Below the pieces are notes generated by a model. The model saw only the letters and a list, made by a program, of their open reading frames with translations, had not been told where the DNA came from and did not search any database. 32,000 nucleotides of DNA from Dickeya dadantii NCPPB 898 (GTDB taxonomy: Bacteria; Pseudomonadota; Gammaproteobacteria; Enterobacterales; Enterobacteriaceae): assembly GCF_000406145.1 (NCBI RefSeq), contig NZ_CM001976.1, forward strand, positions 4,057,472 to 4,089,471, read 5' to 3'. Shown here piece after piece: positions 4,157-12,231 of this stretch (position 1 is the first letter of the stretch; each line of letters starts with the position of its first letter). The position numbers were made by a program, and so were the translations under genes.

Positions 4157-4924
4157 TCAGCCATTCAGAATTTGCCACAGCAGGCGACGGTACACCGGCA
4201 TCAACGGATGCTGCCACAGCTGCCACAGACTGACGGCGGCGATAACCGACACCAGCGGCGCCAGCCAGTACAGACGCGAAGCCGTCAACCAACCGGTTGA
4301 TTCGGCTTTCGCTCCGCGACGAACACGCCACAGACGCCACACCAGCCAGCCCGCTCCCCACAGCAAAATAGCCGTGACCAACAGTAGCCACTTGAAACTG
4401 CCGCTGTCGGCCTGTTTGGGGATATCGATCGCCACGCCGGCCAGAATGCCGGGCAGCAGATAAACCGGCGGCCAGGTAAGGCAGCCGATGATATTCGGCA
4501 ACGCAAAGCGCCGGGGCGACAACTCCAGCATCCCCGCCACCATCGGGATCAGCGGACGAGTCGGGCCAAAAAACCGCCCAATCAGGATGGTCGCCATATT
4601 GTGCTGATGCAGCATTTTTTCCGTGCGATACAGATACGCCCGATGCTTTTGCAGAAACGACCAGTTATGCAGCCGGTCCTTGAAACGCCAGCCGATAAAA
4701 TAGGAAATCCAGTCTCCCAGCAGGCAACCGATGATGCCCATGCCCCAGGCCGGGTACAGCCCCATATTACCGCTGCCGATCAGCGCCCCCAGCGACGCCA
4801 TCATCAGCGTGCCGGGCAATAGCAGCCCCACCAACGCCAGCGACTCCAGAAACGCCACCAGCAGTACCGCCGTCAGCGACCAGGCTAACGATTGAGTGAT
4901 CAGATGCTCCAGCCAGGCTTCCAT
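4157..4924 (-). CDS. yabI: DedA-family inner membrane protein YabI
   Basis: 255 aa and multi-TM. VAFLESLALVGLLLPGT, GRFFGPTRPLIPMVAGML and NIIGCLTWPPVYLLPGILAG are collinear with E. coli YabI (254 aa). Confidence 0.88.
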   Translation of the reverse strand: MEAWLEHLITQSLAWSLTAVLLVAFLESLALVGLLLPGTLMMASLGALIGSGNMGLYPAWGMGIIGCLLGDWISYFIGWRFKDRLHNWSFLQKHRAYLYRTEKMLHQHNMATILIGRFFGPTRPLIPMVAGMLELSPRRFALPNIIGCLTWPPVYLLPGILAGVAIDIPKQADSGSFKWLLLVTAILLWGAGWLVWRLWRVRRGAKAESTGWLTASRLYWLAPLVSVIAAVSLWQLWQHPLMPVYRRLLWQILNG

Positions 4925-5035
4925 AAACCTCTACATTTCTGCTTTTTTATGAACAAAGATAACGGGATGATAGCAGGAAACGGCAGGAATATGGCAGATA
5001 GTAGTAAAAGCACGGCTGACGCGAAGCTCACCACG

Positions 5036-5168
5036 ACTGGACAGCCATTTCCTTGAAGCAGCACCCTTTTTTTGTTATAAAAGTATCACTTTAGGACAAT
5101 AAATGGATTGACTCATGGAAGAAGCGAGGATTGCTTTTCCTGTTGGCAACGGGCAGATCAACAGAGTT
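5036..5168 (+). repeat. Copy A of a ~133-bp direct repeat (promoter, 5' UTR and first 18 codons of the muramidase gene)
   Basis: It is collinear with 8362..8493, and the distance from the -35 hexamer to the ATG is 62 nt in both copies. I count about 5 mismatches over the ~94 nt from the -35 hexamer to codon 11. Confidence 0.9.
5053..5081 (+). promoter_or_regulatory. Sigma70-like promoter of the effector-immunity operon
   Basis: TTGAAG (5053-5058), a 17-nt spacer and TATAAA (5076-5081) lie 34 nt upstream of the ATG at 5115. The identical hexamers and spacing recur at 8378..8406. Confidence 0.55.
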
Positions 5169-5966
5169 GAAGACGTAAAAACCGTTCAACAGTTGCTGAA
5201 CAGCCGGTCAAACGGAACACTGAGCGTTGACGGTATTGTCGGCACCAGAACACAGGCAGCCATTATCCACTTTCAACGCCAGATATTAGGAATGGGTACA
5301 CCTGACGGTATTGTCTCCCCGCACGGACCTACACTGAGAAAATTAAACCATCTTCACACCCGACGCCCGGCAACCTCTCAGCCATCATTTTCTGCCGACT
5401 CCGGCGACAGCGTTTCCGAAGAGCTCTATCTGAATGCAGCCAGAGAGCTAAACTGCGAAGTAGCGGCGATTAAAGCGATTGTAATGACTGAAACCGCGCT
5501 AAATAGCGCGTTTATCAGCCCAGGTAAACCCAAAATACTTTATGAACGACACTACTTTCGTCGTCTGACACAAGGTAGATACGACCGGTCAAATCCGGAT
5601 ATATCGGGTGATCAATACGATCGTTATGGTTCAAATAACCGTCAATACGAGCGGCTTGAACAAGCAATAAGACTAGACAGGCGAGCAGCATTAATGTCGG
5701 CCTCATGGGGAGCTTTCCAGATTATGGGGGCAAATTATAGAACAGCTGGCTTTGATGATGTCGAAAGTTTCGTAGCCGCGATGAGTAATATTAATGGGCA
5801 AGTATTTTCTTTCATCAATCATATAAAAAGCTCAACAGTTCTACTTTCAGCGCTACAACATAAAGACTGGAAAAAATTTGCAAGACACTATAATGGCAAG
5901 GATTACGAAAAGAAAAAATATGATTTAATTATAGCTAACAACTATAATCTACTAACAAACAGATAA
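5115..5966 (+). CDS. Peptidoglycan-binding domain plus DUF3380/PF11860-type N-acetylmuramidase; candidate Hcp-associated T6SS antibacterial effector
   Basis: 283 aa with no signal peptide or TM segment. The N-terminal region VKTVQQLLN...DGIVGTRTQAAIIHFQ...GTPDGIVSP looks like PG_binding_1. The C-terminal part carries motifs I associate with the DUF3380 muramidase family (KPKILYERHYF, RRAALMSASWGAFQIMGANY, W.KFARHYNG.DY..KKYD). The gene is AT-rich relative to the flanks. Confidence 0.85.
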   Translation: MEEARIAFPVGNGQINRVEDVKTVQQLLNSRSNGTLSVDGIVGTRTQAAIIHFQRQILGMGTPDGIVSPHGPTLRKLNHLHTRRPATSQPSFSADSGDSVSEELYLNAARELNCEVAAIKAIVMTETALNSAFISPGKPKILYERHYFRRLTQGRYDRSNPDISGDQYDRYGSNNRQYERLEQAIRLDRRAALMSASWGAFQIMGANYRTAGFDDVESFVAAMSNINGQVFSFINHIKSSTVLLSALQHKDWKKFARHYNGKDYEKKKYDLIIANNYNLLTNR

Positions 5967-5975
5967 GGATAAAAA

Positions 5976-6539
5976 ATGAAAAAACTCCTGACATACTTAA
6001 TCATATTATTATCATTCGAATCTTACGCATCTATAAACTTAAAAAAACCTGAAAACATTGATTTTTCCAGGCAACTTACTGAAAAAACAAAATCATTAGA
6101 AATAAGTGACATTAACATAGAAAAAGATCAAACATTTGAAATAGAAAAGGATGGGTTATATCTAGGAACACTAATCCCTGCCGAGGGTTATTATAGAAAA
6201 TACAATCCGCTATGTTTTATTGGTTGGTCGATAGACAAAAAAGAAATCAGTAATATTGTTCCATCTATTGGCCAGGGTGATTTCGAAAATTCAACCTGCT
6301 TAAGTCTCGATGCAGTAGGGAAAATAGACGTTAGCGATAAGACATATATAGGATTTGTCTATACTGTTGGATTAAGAGATAGACGAGCAAAAAACTACTT
6401 CTTGCTTGAGCTGGATAAAGATAAAAGAACGATCGTAGATAAAAGTACAGTTATTGATGAGCTACAGAATAATGGTGAGAAAAAAAGCATTACAGCACTC
6501 CGAAAACATCTTGAAAACACCAAGGAGAAAAAAGAGTGA
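5976..6539 (+). CDS. Paralog 1 of 5: secreted (periplasmic) protein, candidate muramidase immunity/inhibitor
   Basis: 187 aa with signal peptide MKKLLTYLIILLSFESYA|S. AAGGA lies upstream, and the start is 9 nt after the effector stop. It shares the family core GT.IPA.G.Y.NY.PLCFIGWS.DKK.IS.I..S.G.G.FE...C..LDA.GKI....K..IGF.Y.VGL.DR...NYFL.ELD with two conserved Cys. Confidence 0.88.
   Translation: MKKLLTYLIILLSFESYASINLKKPENIDFSRQLTEKTKSLEISDINIEKDQTFEIEKDGLYLGTLIPAEGYYRKYNPLCFIGWSIDKKEISNIVPSIGQGDFENSTCLSLDAVGKIDVSDKTYIGFVYTVGLRDRRAKNYFLLELDKDKRTIVDKSTVIDELQNNGEKKSITALRKHLENTKEKKE
6159..6426 (+). repeat. High-identity segment shared by paralog 1 and paralog 5 (copy in paralog 1)
   Basis: This 268-nt segment is collinear with 9263..9530. 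I count about 23 differences, mostly synonymous. The 5' and 3' parts of the two genes are much more diverged. Confidence 0.8.
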
Positions 6540-7102
6540 GAGCGGTATCAATGATATTCTTTATGGTAATATCGTTGCAATCTTACGCATCAATTAACCT
6601 AATAAAAAACAATGAAGATTCACTGATAAAGCAAGTCATTGAAGATGCCAATAAAAGAGGCATTGTTGATATAAAAATACAAGAAGAGCAAATTTTTGAC
6701 ATTAATGAAAACAATAAAAACATAGGAACAATAATACCAGGAAAAGGATTTTATAAAAATTACTATCCAGTTTGTTTTATTAGCTGGTCTACTGACAAGA
6801 AGACAATATCCAATATTGTCTTCTCAATGGGGAATGGTGATTTTGAGTTTTCACAATGCGAAACCCTTGATGCGCTAGGAAAAATAGAGTCCGCAGGAAA
6901 GATATTCATTGGATTTGTTTATTCAGTCGGTTTACCTGATGGTAGAACGGAACAAAATTATTTTTTATTGGCGCTAGATCAGGATAGAAGAGCTATTGTA
7001 GATAAAAGTAAACTTGTAGAACCTCTGCAAAACACCAATGAAAGAAAAAGTATTTCTGCAATCAGAAGACATCTTAAAAAGGTGATGGAAGATAAAGAAT
7101 GA
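6536..7102 (+). CDS. Paralog 2 of 5: secreted protein, candidate immunity
   Basis: 188 aa. The GTG start overlaps the paralog 1 stop (GTGA at 6536-6539), with AAGGAG at 6522-6527. The signal peptide is MRAVSMIFFMVISLQSYA|S. An alternative ATG at 6551 lacks a charged n-region. The family core is the same. Confidence 0.85.
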   Translation: MRAVSMIFFMVISLQSYASINLIKNNEDSLIKQVIEDANKRGIVDIKIQEEQIFDINENNKNIGTIIPGKGFYKNYYPVCFISWSTDKKTISNIVFSMGNGDFEFSQCETLDALGKIESAGKIFIGFVYSVGLPDGRTEQNYFLLALDQDRRAIVDKSKLVEPLQNTNERKSISAIRRHLKKVMEDKE

Positions 7103-7665
7103 AAGTTCTGTTGGCAATACTCACATTGATAATTCCATTGAGTTCATATTCTACTATTAAACTAACTAAAATTAATGATAGTAGCATATTGAAGAAATTG
7201 ATAATAAAAGGCCAAGCATCAGATATCAGCCGCATAAAAATACAGAAAGATCAGACTTTCGACATCAGCGAAGACGGAAAATACATAGGCACTATCGTGC
7301 CCGCAGAAGGATATTACAACAATATTGAACCACTCTGTTTCATTGGATGGTCTTCAGATAATAAAAATATCTCAGATATAAAAATTTCTATCGGTCGGGG
7401 ATTTTTTGAAACAGTGACCTGCCTGAGTCTCGATGCAGTAGGAAAAATTGAAGTTAAAGGAAAAACGTTCATTGGTTTTGTTTATACCGTAGCATTGCGT
7501 GACAGAACATCGCAAAACTATTTTTTACTTGAACTAGATAAAGAAAGAAAAACAATAACAGACGTAAGCAATACAATTGAAAAACTACAATTTTACTCTG
7601 AAAAGAAAAGCATCATTGATCTTAAAAAGTACCTTGAAGAAAATTTGCAAGCTGTAAAAAGCTAA
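7099..7665 (+). CDS. Paralog 3 of 5: secreted protein, candidate immunity
   Basis: 188 aa. An ATGA start/stop overlap with paralog 2 (7099-7102) suggests translational coupling. The signal peptide is MKVLLAILTLIIPLSSYS|T. The family core is the same. Confidence 0.88.
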   Translation: MKVLLAILTLIIPLSSYSTIKLTKINDSSILKKLIIKGQASDISRIKIQKDQTFDISEDGKYIGTIVPAEGYYNNIEPLCFIGWSSDNKNISDIKISIGRGFFETVTCLSLDAVGKIEVKGKTFIGFVYTVALRDRTSQNYFLLELDKERKTITDVSNTIEKLQFYSEKKSIIDLKKYLEENLQAVKS

Positions 7666-7686
7666 AAACCGTTAAATTTCAGCTTA

Positions 7687-7726
7687 ATTATCTGGCACCT
7701 AATATCACACAATGGTGCCAGATAAT
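7687..7726. terminator. Bidirectional hairpin terminator between the effector-immunity operon and convergent hcp
   Basis: ATTATCTGGCACC (7687-7699) and GGTGCCAGATAAT (7714-7726) form a 13-bp perfect stem with a 14-nt loop. It sits in the 82-bp gap between the paralog 3 stop (7665) and the hcp stop (7748), in A/T-rich flanks. Confidence 0.7.
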
Positions 7727-7747
7727 AACGCAGGAAGATCCCACTAA

Positions 7748-8227
7748 TTAAAACAGCTGACTTTCCCAAATGCAATATGCACTGGTTCCGGCTTTGACAT
7801 GTTCGCATAACATGTTTTTATAAGTAAAAGAGATAAACTCTTCTGGTTGATATTCATTGTGCGTTATCGAACTGGGGTAGTGCATTCTGATATTTTTTAC
7901 TTTTGCATCGGTCAATTTTATTGAGAAATATTGCTCCATCCCCCCATTCTCTGAAGTTCGGTAGAAAATGAAAGTACAGGTTAAATATTCGTTCTCGTTT
8001 AACGTGCTCAATAATAATGGTGTCGATTTATCAATTGGTTTCCTAATTTCAACAGGTTGATATGCAACATTATCGATACGCTCTGCTGCATTGTTTAGCT
8101 CATAGACAAAAATCTCATTTTCATGCCCTTTTTGCCATTTGTTCCCCATTGAGTCATAAGATCCACATCCAGAAGAGATCAGCCCCTGATTTTTACCTTC
8201 TATTTTCAGATAAATGATATTGGCCAT
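7748..8227 (-). CDS. hcp: Type VI secretion tube protein Hcp (TssD), orphan copy
   Basis: 159 aa. The N-terminus MANIIYLKIEGKNQGLISSGCGSYDSMGNKWQKGHENEIFV, the size and the overall pattern resemble enterobacterial Hcp-family proteins as I recall them. There is no C-terminal toxin extension. AAGGGAA lies upstream of the ATG. Confidence 0.82.
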   Translation of the reverse strand: MANIIYLKIEGKNQGLISSGCGSYDSMGNKWQKGHENEIFVYELNNAAERIDNVAYQPVEIRKPIDKSTPLLLSTLNENEYLTCTFIFYRTSENGGMEQYFSIKLTDAKVKNIRMHYPSSITHNEYQPEEFISFTYKNMLCEHVKAGTSAYCIWESQLF

Positions 8228-8361
8228 AAAATTCCCTTTAACAATTGAAATATATTAATTAAGCAAGATACAACCAACGATGATAATGTAATTTCTATTA
8301 CATATCTATATTCTAAGCAAATAAAAATCCTGCCGATACGTGTCAGGATAGTTTAATCATA

Positions 8362-8493
8362 ACTGGCAACCATTGCCTTGAAGCAACACCATTTTTTTGT
8401 TATAAAAGCATCACATTAGGACAATAAATGGATTGACTCATGGAAGAAGCCAGGATTGCTTTTCCTGTTGGTACATTGCAGAACAACAGAGTT
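8362..8493 (+). repeat. Copy B of the ~133-bp direct repeat (promoter, 5' UTR and effector codons 1-18)
   Basis: See copy A (5036..5168). Similarity ends right after AACAGAGTT (codon 18). Confidence 0.9.
8378..8406 (+). promoter_or_regulatory. Second copy of the sigma70-like promoter, now driving paralogs 4-5
   Basis: TTGAAG (8378-8383), a 17-nt spacer and TATAAA (8401-8406) have the same hexamers and spacing as 5053..5081. Confidence 0.55.
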
Positions 8494-8505
8494 AAGTTAG
8501 GGTGA
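8440..8505 (+). pseudogene. Remnant of a second muramidase effector gene (first ~18 codons only; 21-aa ORF)
   Basis: The sequence ATGGAAGAAGCCAGGATTGCTTTTCCTGTTGG... translates to MEEARIAFPVGTLQNNRVKLG*, compared with MEEARIAFPVGNGQINRVEDVK... in the intact gene at 5115. The rest of the effector is absent, and the paralog 4 start follows 5 nt after the stop. Confidence 0.8.
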
Positions 8506-8510
8506 CCCAT

Positions 8511-9077
8511 ATGAAAAAAATAGCACATGCTTCACTATTAATAGCGCTATTGGCCTCATTACAAGCCTATGCATCTATTAATTTAATCAAGAATGAGGAT
8601 AAAACCCTATCAAGTGAAGTAATAAAATATGGAAATAAAAAAGGGCTAGTTGATATAAAAACCCAGAGCGATCAGAGCTTTGACATTATTGACGACGGGA
8701 AATACATAGGAACAATCATTCCAGCCAAAGGATTTCATAAAAACTATTACCCGCTATGCTTTATTGGTTGGTCAACTGATAAAAAAACAATATCAAAAAT
8801 CATCCCATCAATAGGGCAAGGATATTTTGAACTTTCCCTCTGTTCAAAACTTGATGCAATAGGAAAAATAGAGGAAAAAGGAAGAACCTTTATTGGCTTT
8901 ATATACACTGTAGGGTTGAGAGACAGATATGCTCAAAACTACTTTCTCATTGAGCTTAATAGAGAAAAAAGAACTATAGAAGATAAAAGTCAACTCATTG
9001 AAAAATTTCAAAATGACTCAGAAAAAAAGAGCATAGCTGATCTCAGAAGAGATATAAAGAAAATTGATGAGAAATAG
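8511..9077 (+). CDS. Paralog 4 of 5: secreted protein, candidate (orphan) immunity
   Basis: The ORF track starts at GTG 8502. ATG 8511 gives 188 aa, the same as the other paralogs. The signal peptide is MKKIAHASLLIALLASLQAYA|S. The mature N-terminus (SINLIKNEDK..VDIK) resembles paralog 2. The family core is the same. Confidence 0.86.
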   Translation: MKKIAHASLLIALLASLQAYASINLIKNEDKTLSSEVIKYGNKKGLVDIKTQSDQSFDIIDDGKYIGTIIPAKGFHKNYYPLCFIGWSTDKKTISKIIPSIGQGYFELSLCSKLDAIGKIEEKGRTFIGFIYTVGLRDRYAQNYFLIELNREKRTIEDKSQLIEKFQNDSEKKSIADLRRDIKKIDEK

Positions 9078-9079
9078 CA

Positions 9080-9634
9080 ATGAAGAAAATATTGACAATA
9101 ATAACATTATCAATATCGCTTCAAGCGCATGCATCAATTACGTTAACGCCGATTGATAGCAGTAATCTATTATTGCAGCTGTCGATAAAAACACAGCCCT
9201 TGGGAATAGACCAGATAAAAATAGATAATGGACAATCTTTTGACATTACTGAAAACGGTAAATATCTAGGCACACTAATCCCTGCCGAGGGTTATTATAG
9301 AAAATACAATCCGCTATGCTTTATTGGTTGGTCTATAGACAAAAAAGAAATCAGTAATATTGTTCCATCTATTGGTCAAGGTGATTTCGAAAACTCAACT
9401 TGCTTAAGTCTCGATGCAGTTGGAAAAATAGATGTTAGGAAGAAAACATATATAGGGTTTGTTTATACTGTTGGATTAAGAGACAGACGAGCTAAAAACT
9501 ATTTTTTGATTGAGTTAGATAAAGATAAAATAACGATCGCAGATAAAAATGCCCTTGTCGATAGTCTACAAAATAATAGTGATGAAAAAAGCATTGCAAT
9601 GCTCAGGAAAGAGACTGTAATTAAAATTGTGTAA
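9080..9634 (+). CDS. Paralog 5 of 5: secreted protein, candidate (orphan) immunity, 3' end replaced by IS sequence
   Basis: 184 aa with signal peptide MKKILTIITLSISLQAHA|S. The central part is near-identical to paralog 1. From codon 178 (GAG at 9611) the reading frame runs into the IS left inverted repeat, giving the foreign tail ETVIKIV*. Confidence 0.82.
   Translation: MKKILTIITLSISLQAHASITLTPIDSSNLLLQLSIKTQPLGIDQIKIDNGQSFDITENGKYLGTLIPAEGYYRKYNPLCFIGWSIDKKEISNIVPSIGQGDFENSTCLSLDAVGKIDVRKKTYIGFVYTVGLRDRRAKNYFLIELDKDKITIADKNALVDSLQNNSDEKSIAMLRKETVIKIV
9263..9530 (+). repeat. High-identity segment shared by paralog 1 and paralog 5 (copy in paralog 5)
   Basis: See 6159..6426. Confidence 0.8.
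9603..9610. repeat. Left copy of the 8-bp target-site duplication (TCAGGAAA)
   Basis: TCAGGAAA directly abuts the IS left end, and an identical octamer is found at 10926-10933. A 9-bp reading (CTCAGGAAA) is equally possible because the adjacent base is ambiguous. Confidence 0.8.
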
Positions 9635-10925
9635 TTGCCTGTTTTTGATATGTTCACTCCAACAACGGAGACAGGCAAACGATGGACGAAAAGAAACTCA
9701 AAGCACTGGCTGCTGAATTGGCTAAAGGCCTTAAAACCGAAGCTGACCTCAATGCGTTTTCCCGCATGCTGACGAAGTTAACCGTCGAAACCGCGCTCAA
9801 TACAGAACTGACTGAGCATCTCGGGCACGAGAAAAATGCCCCTAAATCAGGCTCTAATACCCGAAATGGTTACTCGTCTAAAACCGTGTTATGCGACGAC
9901 GGTGAGATTGAACTGAGTACGCCACGTGACCGCGAAAACACCTTCGAGCCGCAACTGATAAAGAAAAATCAGACACGTATCACGCAGATGGACAGCCAGA
10001 TTTTATCTCTGTACGCCAAAGGCATGACGACCCGTGAAATCGTTTCTACATTCAAAGAGATGTACGATGCTGATGTGTCTCCCACGCTGATATCCAAAGT
10101 GACCGATGCGGTTAAAGAGCAGGTGACAGAATGGCAAAACCGGCCACTGAACCCGCTATATCCCATTGTTTATCTTGATTGTATCGTGGTGAAAGTCCGT
10201 CATAGCGGCAGCGTCATTAACAAAGCGGTATTCCTTGCGTTGGGCATCAACACAGACGGCCAGAAAGAGCTGCTGGGTATGTGGCTGGCCGAAAACGAAG
10301 GCGCGAAGTTCTGGCTCAATGTGCTGACGGAGCTTAAAAACCGGGGACTTCAGGATATCCTGATTGCCTGCGTGGACGGTCTGAAAGGTTTCCCGGAGGC
10401 GATAAACAGCGTTTATCCTCAGACACATATCCAGTTATGCATCATCCATATGGTGCGCAACAGCCTGAAATATGTCTCGTGGAAGGATTACAAGGGCGTC
10501 ACCAGCGGGCTGAAAGCGGTGTATCAGGCCCCAACTGAGGAAGCGGCGTTGATGGCGCTGGACAAGTTCTCCGGCATCTGGGATGAAAAATACCCCCAAA
10601 TCAGTAAAAGCTGGCGTGCGCACTGGGAAAATCTCAACACGTTCTTTGGCTACCCGCCGGATATCCGCAAGGCTATCTACACCACCAATGCCATCGAGTC
10701 GCTGAACAGTGTTATTCGGCAGGCGATAAAGAAACGTAAGGTGTTCCCGACAGATGATTCGGTACGTAAAGTGATTTATCTGGCAATACAGTCGGCCTCG
10801 AAAAAATGGAGTATGCCGATCCAGAACTGGCGGCTGGCGATGAGCCGTTTTATTATCGAGTTCGGTGACCGCCTGAGCGATCACCTTTAATACGGTGGCA
10901 ATTACACAGAATTATTTACAGGGTC
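9611..10925 (+). mobile_element. IS256-family insertion sequence (~1.3 kb)
   Basis: It carries a single Mutator/IS256-type transposase ORF. The terminal inverted repeats are imperfect: GAGACTGTAATTAAAATTGTGTAATTGCC (9611-9639) against the reverse complement of 10897-10925, GACCCTGTAAATAATTCTGTGTAATTGCC, with 23 of 29 matches by my count. The element is flanked by the 8-bp direct repeat TCAGGAAA. Its base composition is intermediate between island and core. Confidence 0.9.
9682..10890 (+). CDS. IS256-family (Mutator-like) transposase
   Basis: 402 aa. MDEKKLKALAAELAKGLKTEADL...TELTEHLGHEK...YLDCIVVKVR...ACVDGLKGFPEAI...IQLCIIHMVRNS...TTNAIESLN is the typical layout of IS256/IS285-like transposases. 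Confidence 0.93.
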   Translation: MDEKKLKALAAELAKGLKTEADLNAFSRMLTKLTVETALNTELTEHLGHEKNAPKSGSNTRNGYSSKTVLCDDGEIELSTPRDRENTFEPQLIKKNQTRITQMDSQILSLYAKGMTTREIVSTFKEMYDADVSPTLISKVTDAVKEQVTEWQNRPLNPLYPIVYLDCIVVKVRHSGSVINKAVFLALGINTDGQKELLGMWLAENEGAKFWLNVLTELKNRGLQDILIACVDGLKGFPEAINSVYPQTHIQLCIIHMVRNSLKYVSWKDYKGVTSGLKAVYQAPTEEAALMALDKFSGIWDEKYPQISKSWRAHWENLNTFFGYPPDIRKAIYTTNAIESLNSVIRQAIKKRKVFPTDDSVRKVIYLAIQSASKKWSMPIQNWRLAMSRFIIEFGDRLSDHL

Positions 10926-10933
10926 TCAGGAAA
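10926..10933. repeat. Right copy of the 8-bp target-site duplication (TCAGGAAA)
   Basis: It is identical to 9603-9610 and directly abuts the IS right end. Confidence 0.8.
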
Positions 10934-10960
10934 TATTTTTCTCAAAACATCTCACGTTAA
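10934..10960 (+). pseudogene. Displaced original 3' end of paralog 5 (8 codons plus stop)
   Basis: Removing the IS and one TSD copy joins ...ATG CTC AGG AAA to TAT TTT TCT CAA AAC ATC TCA CGT TAA. This restores ...MLRKYFSQNISR* (185 aa), which is comparable to the LRKHL/IRRHL/LKKYL tails of the other paralogs. Confidence 0.65.
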
Positions 10961-11006
10961 TCCAGACGTATCATTAATTATAAATCCAGCAGGAAAATAG
11001 AGGCAA

Positions 11007-11399
11007 TTATAACAGCAATTCAAAATAAGTAGCATTATCTTCACGATTAACGGAAAGCACAATAAATTTATTTTTATCTGGCGATTCCCATACCTCTCGG
11101 TAGCCATCATCCATATTGAGCGTAAACTTCAATAATTTCAAATAGTTCCTTAACGTCTCAATATCGGTGGTATTTTCAAAATATATACCAGTGACCTGCT
11201 TCCCAGGCCCTTCAGCATCGCCGTGTTTAATTTGATATTTTTGAGATATTTTGGGTACGTTTTTTATTATTGGATCAATTAATTGACTGCTGTCAAAACC
11301 AATCAAAGAGGGGATGCAAGCACCAACATTAAGAGAATAGGTAAGAAAAGATGAAATAAAAATCAGCCTGAACAATATGTTCATATGTTTCTTACTCAT
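11007..11399 (-). CDS. Small hypothetical lipoprotein (orphan, AT-rich)
   Basis: 130 aa. The N-terminus MSKKHMNILFRLIFISSFLTYSLNVGAC has a charged n-region, a hydrophobic core and a lipobox-like VGAC. I recognise no family. It lies at the right end of the AT-rich island. Confidence 0.65.
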   Translation of the reverse strand: MSKKHMNILFRLIFISSFLTYSLNVGACIPSLIGFDSSQLIDPIIKNVPKISQKYQIKHGDAEGPGKQVTGIYFENTTDIETLRNYLKLLKFTLNMDDGYREVWESPDKNKFIVLSVNREDNATYFELLL

Positions 11400-11510
11400 T
11401 ATTCTTTAAGTACAGTGGTTAATTCACTTGCGCCACGAAATCCCAACCAGATCACATAGAAAAGAGACTGATCGAAGGCATAACCTAAACCAGAGCAACA
11501 ATATAGACAA

Positions 11511-11534
11511 GTGCGCCGACGTGACACGGCGCAC
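11511..11534 (-). terminator. Hairpin terminator downstream of the liv-like operon
   Basis: GTGCGCCG (11511-11518) and CGGCGCAC (11527-11534) form an 8-bp GC-rich stem with an 8-nt loop. It lies 10 nt past the livF-like stop. On the minus strand it is followed by TTGTCTATATTGTTG. Confidence 0.6.
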
Positions 11535-11543
11535 TCTCTTCTC

Positions 11544-12231
11544 TCATCCCCCCAAATACATCCGCTTAACCTCCGGATTGGCGAGAATCTCCTGCGCCGG
11601 GCCATGCAATGCAATACGACCGTTTTCCAGCACATAGGCGCGATCGGCGATTTTCAGCGCCGCGGTGGCGTTCTGCTCTACCAGCAGGATGGTGATGCCT
11701 TCTTTTTGCAACTGCTTGATGGTTGAGAATAATTCGCCCACCACCTTCGGCGCCAGCCCCAGGCTTGGTTCGTCCAGCATCAGTAACACCGGTTCGCTCA
11801 TCAGCGCGCGGGCGATTGCCAGCATCTGCTGTTCGCCGCCGCTCATGGTGCCGGCCATCTGGCCGCGCCGTTCTTTGAGACGCGGAAACAGCGCGTACAT
11901 TTTGTCGCGCAGGTAGGTAAAGTTGACCGGGTTATTGTAAGCGCCCATACGCAGGTTTTCTTCAATGGTCAGATTGGTGAACACCTTGCGCCCTTCCGGC
12001 ACCAGCGCCAGCCCTTTGCGCACGATTTGGTGCGTTGGGCTGTGGGAAATATCCTCGTTGAGAAAACCGACCGCTCCGGTGGATTTCACCAGATTGATGA
12101 TGCCGTTGAGAGTTGAGGTTTTCCCGGCGCCGTTGCTGCCGATCAGGGTGACGATTTCGCTGTTGTTCACTTCCAGATCGATGCCTTTTAGCCCCTGAAT
12201 CAGCCCGTAAAACACCTGCAGATCGCTGGCC

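Follow-up and report, generated by a model that had tools for sequence, protein, structure and literature searches.

Deletion of an endolysin-like effector gene as the probable origin of a putative promoter-driven orphan immunity module in Dickeya dadantii NCPPB 898

In a stretch of 32,000 nucleotides (nt) of the Dickeya dadantii NCPPB 898 genome (RefSeq assembly GCF_000406145.1, contig NZ_CM001976.1, positions 4,057,472 to 4,089,471 of the forward strand; hereafter the window), the promoter and first 18 codons of a predicted muramidase effector gene occur twice, once ahead of the complete gene and once directly ahead of two putative immunity genes, p4 and p5. How did an effector start without an effector come to stand before immunity genes, and does it still serve them? 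We consider it likely that an effector allele was deleted down to its promoter and an 18-codon stub, leaving p4 and p5 as promoter-driven antidotes, and that this allele is an old one, shared with D. solani, which now lies beside an intact block. The elements of the two modules, with the evidence for each, are as follows.

5036..5168, plus strand: repeat copy A, with the promoter, 5' untranslated region (5'UTR) and codons 1-18 of the intact effector (self-BLASTN, MAFFT)
5115..5966, plus strand: intact 283-amino-acid (aa) effector, N-terminal peptidoglycan-binding and C-terminal N-acetylmuramidase parts (Pfam, PDB matches)
5976..6539, plus strand: p1, putative periplasmic immunity gene (open reading frame (ORF), family alignment)
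6536..7102, plus strand: p2, putative periplasmic immunity gene with a GTG start (ORF, family alignment)
7099..7665, plus strand: p3, putative periplasmic immunity gene (ORF, family alignment)
7748..8227, minus strand: orphan hcp (Hcp1), divergent from the remnant module (T6SS_HCP, PF05638, E 4.6e-19)
8362..8493, plus strand: repeat copy B, with the kept effector promoter, 5'UTR and effector codons 1-18 (self-BLASTN, MAFFT)
8440..8505, plus strand: 21-codon remnant ORF, a pseudogene stub, with the deletion junction after 8493 (sequence reading)
8511..9077, plus strand: p4, putative orphan immunity gene, 188 aa, with a signal-peptide-like N-terminus (homology to effector-linked genes)
9080..9634, plus strand: p5, second putative orphan immunity gene, its 3' end altered by an insertion sequence (IS) (ORF)

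The repeat, the stub and the intact effector

Self-BLASTN of window positions 4900..9700 paired 5036..5168 with 8362..8493 over 133 columns, with 13 mismatches and one gap (89.5% identity, E = 7e-46), and MAFFT agreed. The initial annotation had described this collinear repeat, and its coordinates were exact. Weaker homology continued for ~12 nt further upstream, to about 8350 in copy B and 5024 in copy A. As the annotation had also read, both copies contained the same TTGAAG-N17-TATAAA promoter, and the two ATGs (5115 in copy A, 8440 in copy B) both lay 62 nt from the first T of the -35 hexamer. Its estimate of about five mismatches between the -35 and codon 11 was nearly right, the count being six. 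We observed that the copies stayed collinear through codon 18 (GTT, 8491..8493) and broke thereafter; the similarity is thus not limited to the promoter, since the alignment includes a collinear coding remnant.

Past codon 18, the stub frame continued for three codons to a stop at 8503..8505, giving the 21-codon peptide MEEARIAFPVGTLQNNRVKLG, and this stop was 5 nt before the p4 ATG at 8511, as had been noted before. Codons 1-18 end just short of the PG_binding_1 domain of the effector (which starts at residue 19), and no domain is left in the stub. The peptide varied between strains (G11D, Q14R, G21E), and its codon 2 was TAA in D. solani. It appears to evolve neutrally, without conservation or function.

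The protein encoded downstream of copy A matched PF11860 (E 3.9e-56, 172/175 profile positions) and PF01471 (PG_binding_1, E 2.7e-07) in Pfam, as well as the phage endolysin structures 7q4s, 5nm7 and 7rum in the PDB, with residues 16-277 aligning to 7rum. These matches suggest that the effector belongs to the endolysin-like muramidases. In most Dickeya loci it is linked to an orphan hcp (82 nt after p3 in the window), which points to delivery, most probably, by a type VI secretion system (T6SS).

In a 50-nt sliding comparison with other D. dadantii loci, the effector was 96-100% identical to about position 5500 and 56-88% identical beyond, the C-terminal half being polymorphic between strains. 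The left breakpoint at codon 18 was considered as the edge of this polymorphic part and was ruled out, as the identity falls only at about 5500. Between 5500 and 6157, the muramidase half shows 56-88% DNA identity to every relative, and the first third of p1 is without a close match. From 6158 on, p1 is orthologous to the second D. dianthicola immunity gene and shares 88% identity with p5. An allele swap in the manner of polymorphic toxins, in which the cognate immunity gene became chimeric, would give an intact module of this appearance.

The deletion and its history

We next consider whether the short ORF could be the original state. Full-length 283-aa homologues were found throughout Dickeya and also, with 43-52% identity, in many other genera. 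Since they are widespread in and outside Dickeya, we take the long gene to be ancestral and the short ORF to be derived.

An intact effector stood directly before a p4-type gene in four species (D. dadantii 3937, D. dianthicola, D. fangzhongdai and D. oryzae). These counterparts agreed with the claim of the initial annotation that the stub is a decapitated effector, its promoter and 18 codons fused to immunity genes. Orthologues of both p4 and p5 followed an intact effector in the same four, where the window has 18 codons. An intact effector at the very position of the stub was found in 3937. To the right of p5 (imm2-liv), the window and 3937 were 98.3% identical, and the intact effector of 3937 therefore sits exactly where the stub does. 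The ATGs of effector and p4 are 858 nt apart in 3937; in the window 71 nt separate them, so that 787 bp net have been lost. The 3937 operon is the undeleted counterpart of the remnant: its promoter and its surroundings (dedA, imm2-liv) are the same, and effector, p4 and p5 follow one another in this order; it differs in its intact effector and in having no hcp or second module at the locus. Its p4 was 84% identical to that of the window at the protein level, with the differences mostly in the N-terminal part, so that the 3937 operon is an allelic cousin of the remnant and not its direct parent.

The junction sequence ...AACAACAGAGTTAAGTTAG(G/A)GT(G/A)A... was common to the window, to D. solani L079 and L080, and to D. 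dadantii L085, L087, L089 and L090 (L numbers denote individual loci), and this points to a single deletion event. On the right side, the breakpoint appears to lie within about the last five effector codons. Intact alleles read stop, 6 nt, ATG, and the stub reads stop, 5 nt, ATG; the stop codon of the stub may be the effector's own. When intact junctions from seven loci were compared, the resemblance of the 17 nt at 8494..8510 to the end of an intact effector frame (final codons, stop, spacer) was only loose. At codons 11-15 the stub has GTLQN and intact alleles have GNGQI or GKGQV, and the parental allele is not among the sampled genomes. For the deletion between short homologies considered in the initial annotation, the motif AGA(G)TTAA is a possible imperfect microhomology.

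Exact look-ups of the Hcp, effector and p4 proteins of the window gave no hit, and the comparison was therefore built on close homologues. The locus was gathered from 14 genomes, and its layouts were sorted into five types, in which imm2 is a second kind of orphan gene, eff2 a putative effector and Hcp2 a second hcp product (see below).

F type: effector, p4, p5, p2, p3, Hcp1(-); L092 and D. dianthicola L083, with shorter versions in D. fangzhongdai, D. oryzae and D. undicola
E type: effector, p4, p5, imm2(-); D. dadantii 3937 (L091)
S type: remnant, p4, p5, imm2(-), eff2(-), Hcp2(-); D. solani L079 and D. dadantii L089
S-min type: remnant, p4, p5, imm2(-); D. dadantii L087
D type (tandem): effector, (p1), p2, p3, Hcp1(-), remnant, p4, p5, imm2(-); the window, L085, L090 and probably L082 (contig cut off at hcp)

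The remnant adjoined dedA as the sole module in D. solani and in two strains of D. dadantii. Moreover, p4 and p5 were orthologues of the first two immunity genes of the ancestral (F-type) array and not copies of p1-p3. The initial annotation had proposed that a module was duplicated or acquired at this site and that its toxin was then deleted. The comparison does not support this order of events: as the junction is shared with sole-module strains and p4 and p5 are not derived from p1-p3, the decapitated allele appears to be old and to have been recombined beside the intact block.

The proposed course of events is the following. The interval from dedA to liv/polB would be a low-GC hot spot for an effector-immunity system, with one to four paralogous secreted immunity genes per effector. 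A deletion of ~787 bp would have removed codon 19 to roughly the effector stop, placing the effector's sigma-70 promoter, 5'UTR and 18-codon stub before p4 and p5. The decapitated allele would later have recombined beside the block of intact effector, p1-p3 and Hcp1. Compared with S-min, the tandem type has an extra 3.3-kb block (the rest of the effector, p1-p3, Hcp1 and an AT-rich spacer), flanked by the promoter copies as direct repeats. The most economical path is from S to S-min (with loss of eff2 and Hcp2) and then to the tandem type (with gain of the block). Whether the block was gained or lost was examined with diagnostic sites in the 13 promoter copies and with flank identities, and the outcome was ambiguous. 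With a D. dadantii assembly the left flank of the window shared 98.1% identity, and with D. solani 94.8%. In copy B, the left part (about 8332-8400) was present in tandem strains only and matched no sampled genome; it carries a 9-nt insertion that forms a hairpin.

A different history is possible, and we regard it as the less probable one. Here the module was tandemly duplicated or acquired, the second toxin was deleted in place, and single-module forms arose later by loss of the upstream block between the promoter repeats. The single-copy remnants next to dedA do resemble the left part of copy A joined to the right part of copy B. Their switch point differs (spacer/5'UTR in D. dadantii, 5'UTR/codon 11 in D. 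solani), which is the pattern expected of independent losses between direct repeats, and tandem-type strains occur across the whole diversity of D. dadantii, with 96.6-98.7% identity between one left flank and another. However, this history needs a tandem haplotype with eff2 and Hcp2, which was not observed, plus at least two or three independent losses, where the path through S-min needs one loss and one gain. In addition, the 'copy-B-like' 5'UTR is the native allele of the dedA-adjacent module in 3937, so much of the apparent chimerism disappears, and the orthology of p4 and p5 to the ancestral array again does not fit.

The older, recombined allele can also be set in a wider scheme, which we put forward as a speculation with rather little expectation that it holds. 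The promoter-plus-leader segment (about 145 bp) could, since all module variants begin with it, act as an integrase-free docking site at which whole effector-immunity-Hcp cassettes are inserted or lost by recombination while the older immunity genes stay promoter-driven. The six D. dadantii/D. solani haplotypes would then represent momentary states of a switch that works in both directions ('weapon on / weapon off, shield always on'), and the changes upstream in copy B, among them the new palindrome beside the -35, would reflect a re-tuned regulation of the shield.

The promoter and the fate of p4 and p5

The -35 hexamer TTGAAG was at 5053..5058 in copy A and 8378..8383 in copy B, and the -10 hexamer TATAAA at 5076..5081 and 8401..8406, with a 17-nt spacer in both and TGT in front of the -10 (an extended -10). 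With TG at -15/-14, the site conforms to a sigma-70 promoter, its spacing falling within 16-18 nt and its start, as mapped in 3937, within 5-9 nt downstream. Thirteen aligned copies, taken from six species, all had the same -35 hexamer and TGTTATAAAAG and varied at 7 of the 17 spacer positions; in D. dianthicola, aligned apart from these 13, the -35 was TTGATG. A consensus promoter scanner did not list the TTGAAG-N17-TATAAA site, because it demands T at position 6 of the -10.

The transcriptome map of strain 3937 (Forquet et al. 2022, PMC9239193, Table S1A) contains a transcription unit, TU1726, made up of Dda3937_01364, 01365 and 01366, with its first start codon at 4152228 (PMC9239193). When we compared the loci, these three genes were the effector, p4 and p5, and their first start codon lay 191 nt from the yabI/dedA start, a spacing equal to that in the window. 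The primary start site of the unit is at 4152200 and is classed as 'strong+pred', that is, with terminator exonuclease (TEX) and RNA-seq support and a predicted promoter; it is 27-28 nt ahead of the start codon, and both gene junctions were validated by Nanopore reads (PMC9239193). This start site is 6-7 nt after TATAAA. The homologous promoter is therefore active, and effector, p4 and p5 are co-transcribed, in 3937.

From the -35 to the start site, copy B differed from the 3937 promoter at three positions, all in the spacer, and from TATAAA to the ATG the two were identical. The predicted starts are about 5087-5088 for copy A and about 8412-8413 for copy B. The earlier proposal of a start ~7 nt downstream of 8406 equals the measured homologous start of 3937, while for copy B the start stays a prediction. 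From this likeness we infer that copy B itself fires. Transcription would begin 6-7 nt after TATAAA (about 8412-8413) and run through the stub into p4-p5, and the cell would keep making periplasmic antidotes against an effector allele that was lost here and is still carried by relatives. The function is thus probably the one first proposed, namely immunity genes kept expressed after loss of the toxin, and p4-p5 would bring a protective benefit.

Two side observations concern the promoter copies. A perfect palindrome, GGCAAccaTTGCC, at 8365..8377 abuts the copy B -35; it is absent from copy A, D. solani and 3937, was created by changes confined to tandem-type strains, and may be an operator or a chance product. 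Between 5059..5114 and 8384..8439, copy A has a spacer T (TTTTTTTG) otherwise seen in B copies only, and two 5'UTR bases shared with B copies and 3937. These sites, one unique and two also in 3937, are only suggestive of a short B-to-A gene-conversion tract between the two repeats.

As regards the immunity genes, p1, p2 and p3 are paralogous, encode proteins of 187-188 aa, and all have signal-peptide-like N-termini; by inspection, the N-termini of the p family follow a basic-hydrophobic-AxA signal-peptide pattern. The family alignment had 36 invariant columns, including two cysteines, and p1-p3 were 52-57% identical to p4 at the amino-acid level. A p-family gene was immediately 3' of the effector in every Dickeya locus examined, and p-family genes also directly followed the effector in Erwinia, Pantoea and Mangrovibacter (21-35% identity, often several copies). 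This arrangement suggests that the p family are immunity proteins, and makes it a candidate new family of muramidase inhibitors paired with PF11860 effectors in four genera. The family had no Pfam model and no PDB relative by sequence, and an AF2 model of p4 (pLDDT 86) gave no significant PDB fold match.

The window p4 was 98% identical to D. solani P0001 at the amino-acid level. Its full 188-aa frame was kept in the window, in D. solani and in three of the four remnant-bearing D. dadantii loci (L085, L087, L089). Pairwise comparison among the orphan copies gave a ratio of nonsynonymous to synonymous substitution rates (dN/dS) of 0.12-0.22, on small counts (8-15 synonymous versus 4-10 nonsynonymous). 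These values suggest that p4 is under purifying selection. The p5 orthologues of D. solani L079 and D. dadantii 3937 are 185 aa long.

Several points weigh against an expressed and protective remnant of a T6SS effector module. Delivery by the T6SS is suggested by hcp linkage within Dickeya, and no Hcp1 or Hcp2 homologue lay within 10 kb of the effector in 3937, nor in the Erwinia, Pantoea and Mangrovibacter loci examined. The immunity role of the p family, which is without a Pfam or PDB relative, is suggested by position, paralogy and the signal-peptide-like N-terminus. Upstream of its -10, copy B is a divergent version confined to tandem-type strains, with the new palindrome against the -35; its regulation may differ, or the AT-rich region may silence it. 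Finally, the orphan genes show decay in places: an IS interrupts p5 in the window, L085 and L080 have truncated forms of p5, and the p4 of L090 is only 174 aa long.

Such damage, along with the nonsense codon in the stub of D. solani, is what would be seen if the remnant module were decaying debris, with copy B silent or irrelevant and p4 and p5 incipient pseudogenes without a protective role. We hold this to be improbable. The 188-aa frame of p4 and its low dN/dS speak against decay, no copy has lost either promoter hexamer or the distance between the two, in 3937 the homologous promoter is a strong one, and the IS costs p5 only its last 8 codons. That the short ORF is a functional leader coupling translation to p4 is very unlikely: a stop (TGA or TAA) does lie 5 nt before the p4 ATG in every remnant copy, but a retained effector stop plus spacer (stop, 6 nt, ATG in intact alleles) also explains this, the TAA at codon 2 precludes translation through the ORF in D. 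solani, and the residues change freely between strains.

Relation to known systems and the surrounding island

Orphan immunity arrays that arise through displacement or loss of effectors have been described in the T6SS clusters of Vibrio cholerae (Kirchberger et al. 2017, PMC5361080), and also for the Pantoea agglomerans islands of hcp, vgrG and paar (Carobbi et al. 2022, PMC9796082). The Dickeya locus shares with these arrays the presence of immunity genes without an effector beside a current effector-immunity module at a recombination hot spot, the occurrence of several related immunity genes, and homology-anchored recombination as the proposed origin. The V. cholerae I-type effector even carries the same DUF3380/PF11860 domain as the Dickeya effector (PMC5361080). 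However, the surviving piece of toxin in Dickeya is the 5' end with its promoter, and not a 3' remnant, and the orphan set therefore has its own promoter and is not merely downstream of the new module. Dickeya also differs in that hcp lies between the orphan set and the intact module, and in that D. solani and two strains of D. dadantii carry the decapitated allele by itself.

The closest named counterpart of the effector is Ame (acetylmuramidase effector), a predicted hcp-island T6SS effector of P. agglomerans strain T6 (bioRxiv 10.1101/2023.03.17.533219). Ame aa 14-277 match the endolysin 7RUM, as do residues 16-277 of the window effector, so that the two have the same endolysin-like architecture. 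The paper on Ame suggests LprI-type lysozyme inhibitors as likely partners, whereas the Dickeya, Erwinia, Pantoea and Mangrovibacter loci have the p family instead. Pantoea homologues were 47-50% identical to the window effector over the full length.

Orphan cdiA-CT/cdiI and rhs-CT/rhsI modules keep the C-terminal toxin domain and usually lack the promoter and start codon. As in these, the Dickeya locus keeps immunity genes and a toxin fragment downstream of an active locus, with short shared sequences that recombine modules in and out. The difference is that in Dickeya the toxin domain is wholly gone, and the promoter and start codon are kept.

The Dickeya case changes no concept, since both effector displacement and the existence of orphan immunity genes for T6SS effectors are well known, and it is a further example of these. 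If the favoured explanation is right, the locus gives a base-resolved example of the birth of an orphan immunity operon, in which one deletion removes the toxin and the toxin's own promoter and start site drive the antidotes, and the decapitated allele persists on both sides of a species boundary (D. solani and D. dadantii). It would also bring to light a previously unannotated immunity family for endolysin-like muramidase effectors, with a confident predicted fold and paired with effectors in four genera, and, in soft-rot pathogens of importance, a hot spot for effectors and immunity genes that exists in at least six haplotypes. These haplotypes may help to account for coexistence and mutual exclusion among Dickeya strains on plants.

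The remaining features of the island are listed here.

4157..4924, minus strand: dedA/yabI-family gene, conserved left border of the variable island (Pfam VTT_dom, E 2.9e-19)
8228..8349, no strand: AT-rich region upstream of hcp (alignment to relatives)
9611..10924, plus strand: ISEc39-like IS256-family insertion sequence (Pfam Transposase_mut, PF00872, E 9.4e-116)
11007..11399, minus strand: imm2, second kind of orphan gene, 130 aa (orthologue comparison)

The island (5000..11500) has about 33% GC against 56-65% in the flanks, with sharp boundaries near 5500 and 11500. The dedA product on its left was 98-100% identical at the amino-acid level in D. dadantii and D. solani loci, and the right flank holds a liv-type ABC transporter, polB and rapA. 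A search of 4800..11700 against Rfam found no RNA family.

Two tandem loci of D. dadantii, L085 and L086, had the AT-rich segment with 99% identity. Sequence of the Hcp1-upstream type and of the promoter type join at about 8331/8332; the alignment to the Hcp1-upstream region of D. fangzhongdai ends at about 8328-8331. A hairpin, ATCCTGccgatacgtgtCAGGAT, at 8329..8351 sits on this join, and on the minus strand it is followed by a T-rich run, which makes it terminator-like towards hcp.

The IS is flanked by a 9-bp target duplication, CTCAGGAAA, at 9602..9610 and 10925..10933, and has imperfect inverted ends (GAGAC..TGTAA...), as expected for the IS256 family. Its left end was 100% identical to ISEc39-family elements annotated in Escherichia coli genomes, and when the region was compared by megablast with 5,426 E. 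coli genomes, the IS end was the only match. The insertion lies 8 codons before the p5 stop and replaces the last 8 p5 codons by 7 IS codons, the native 3' end being found at 10934..10960; the site is uninterrupted in L085 and L079. In L092, an IS256-family transposase lies between p3 and Hcp1, and with the insertion in the window this indicates that the island attracts elements of this family repeatedly.

In D. solani and one D. dadantii strain, the counterpart of imm2 (128 aa) comes after Hcp2 and a putative effector of 231 aa (eff2), two partners that are absent from the window. The 130-aa and 128-aa forms differ in the N-terminal 40 residues. In 3937, imm2 has its own strong start site (TU1727, PMC9239193). 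Pfam gave no match for imm2 or for the D. solani partner genes, including that of the 231-aa protein. Immediately past the livF stop, where the island ends on its right side, a GC-rich hairpin that reads the same on both strands, GAGTGCGCCG...CGGCGCACT, lies at 11509..11536 and is probably the terminator of the liv operon.

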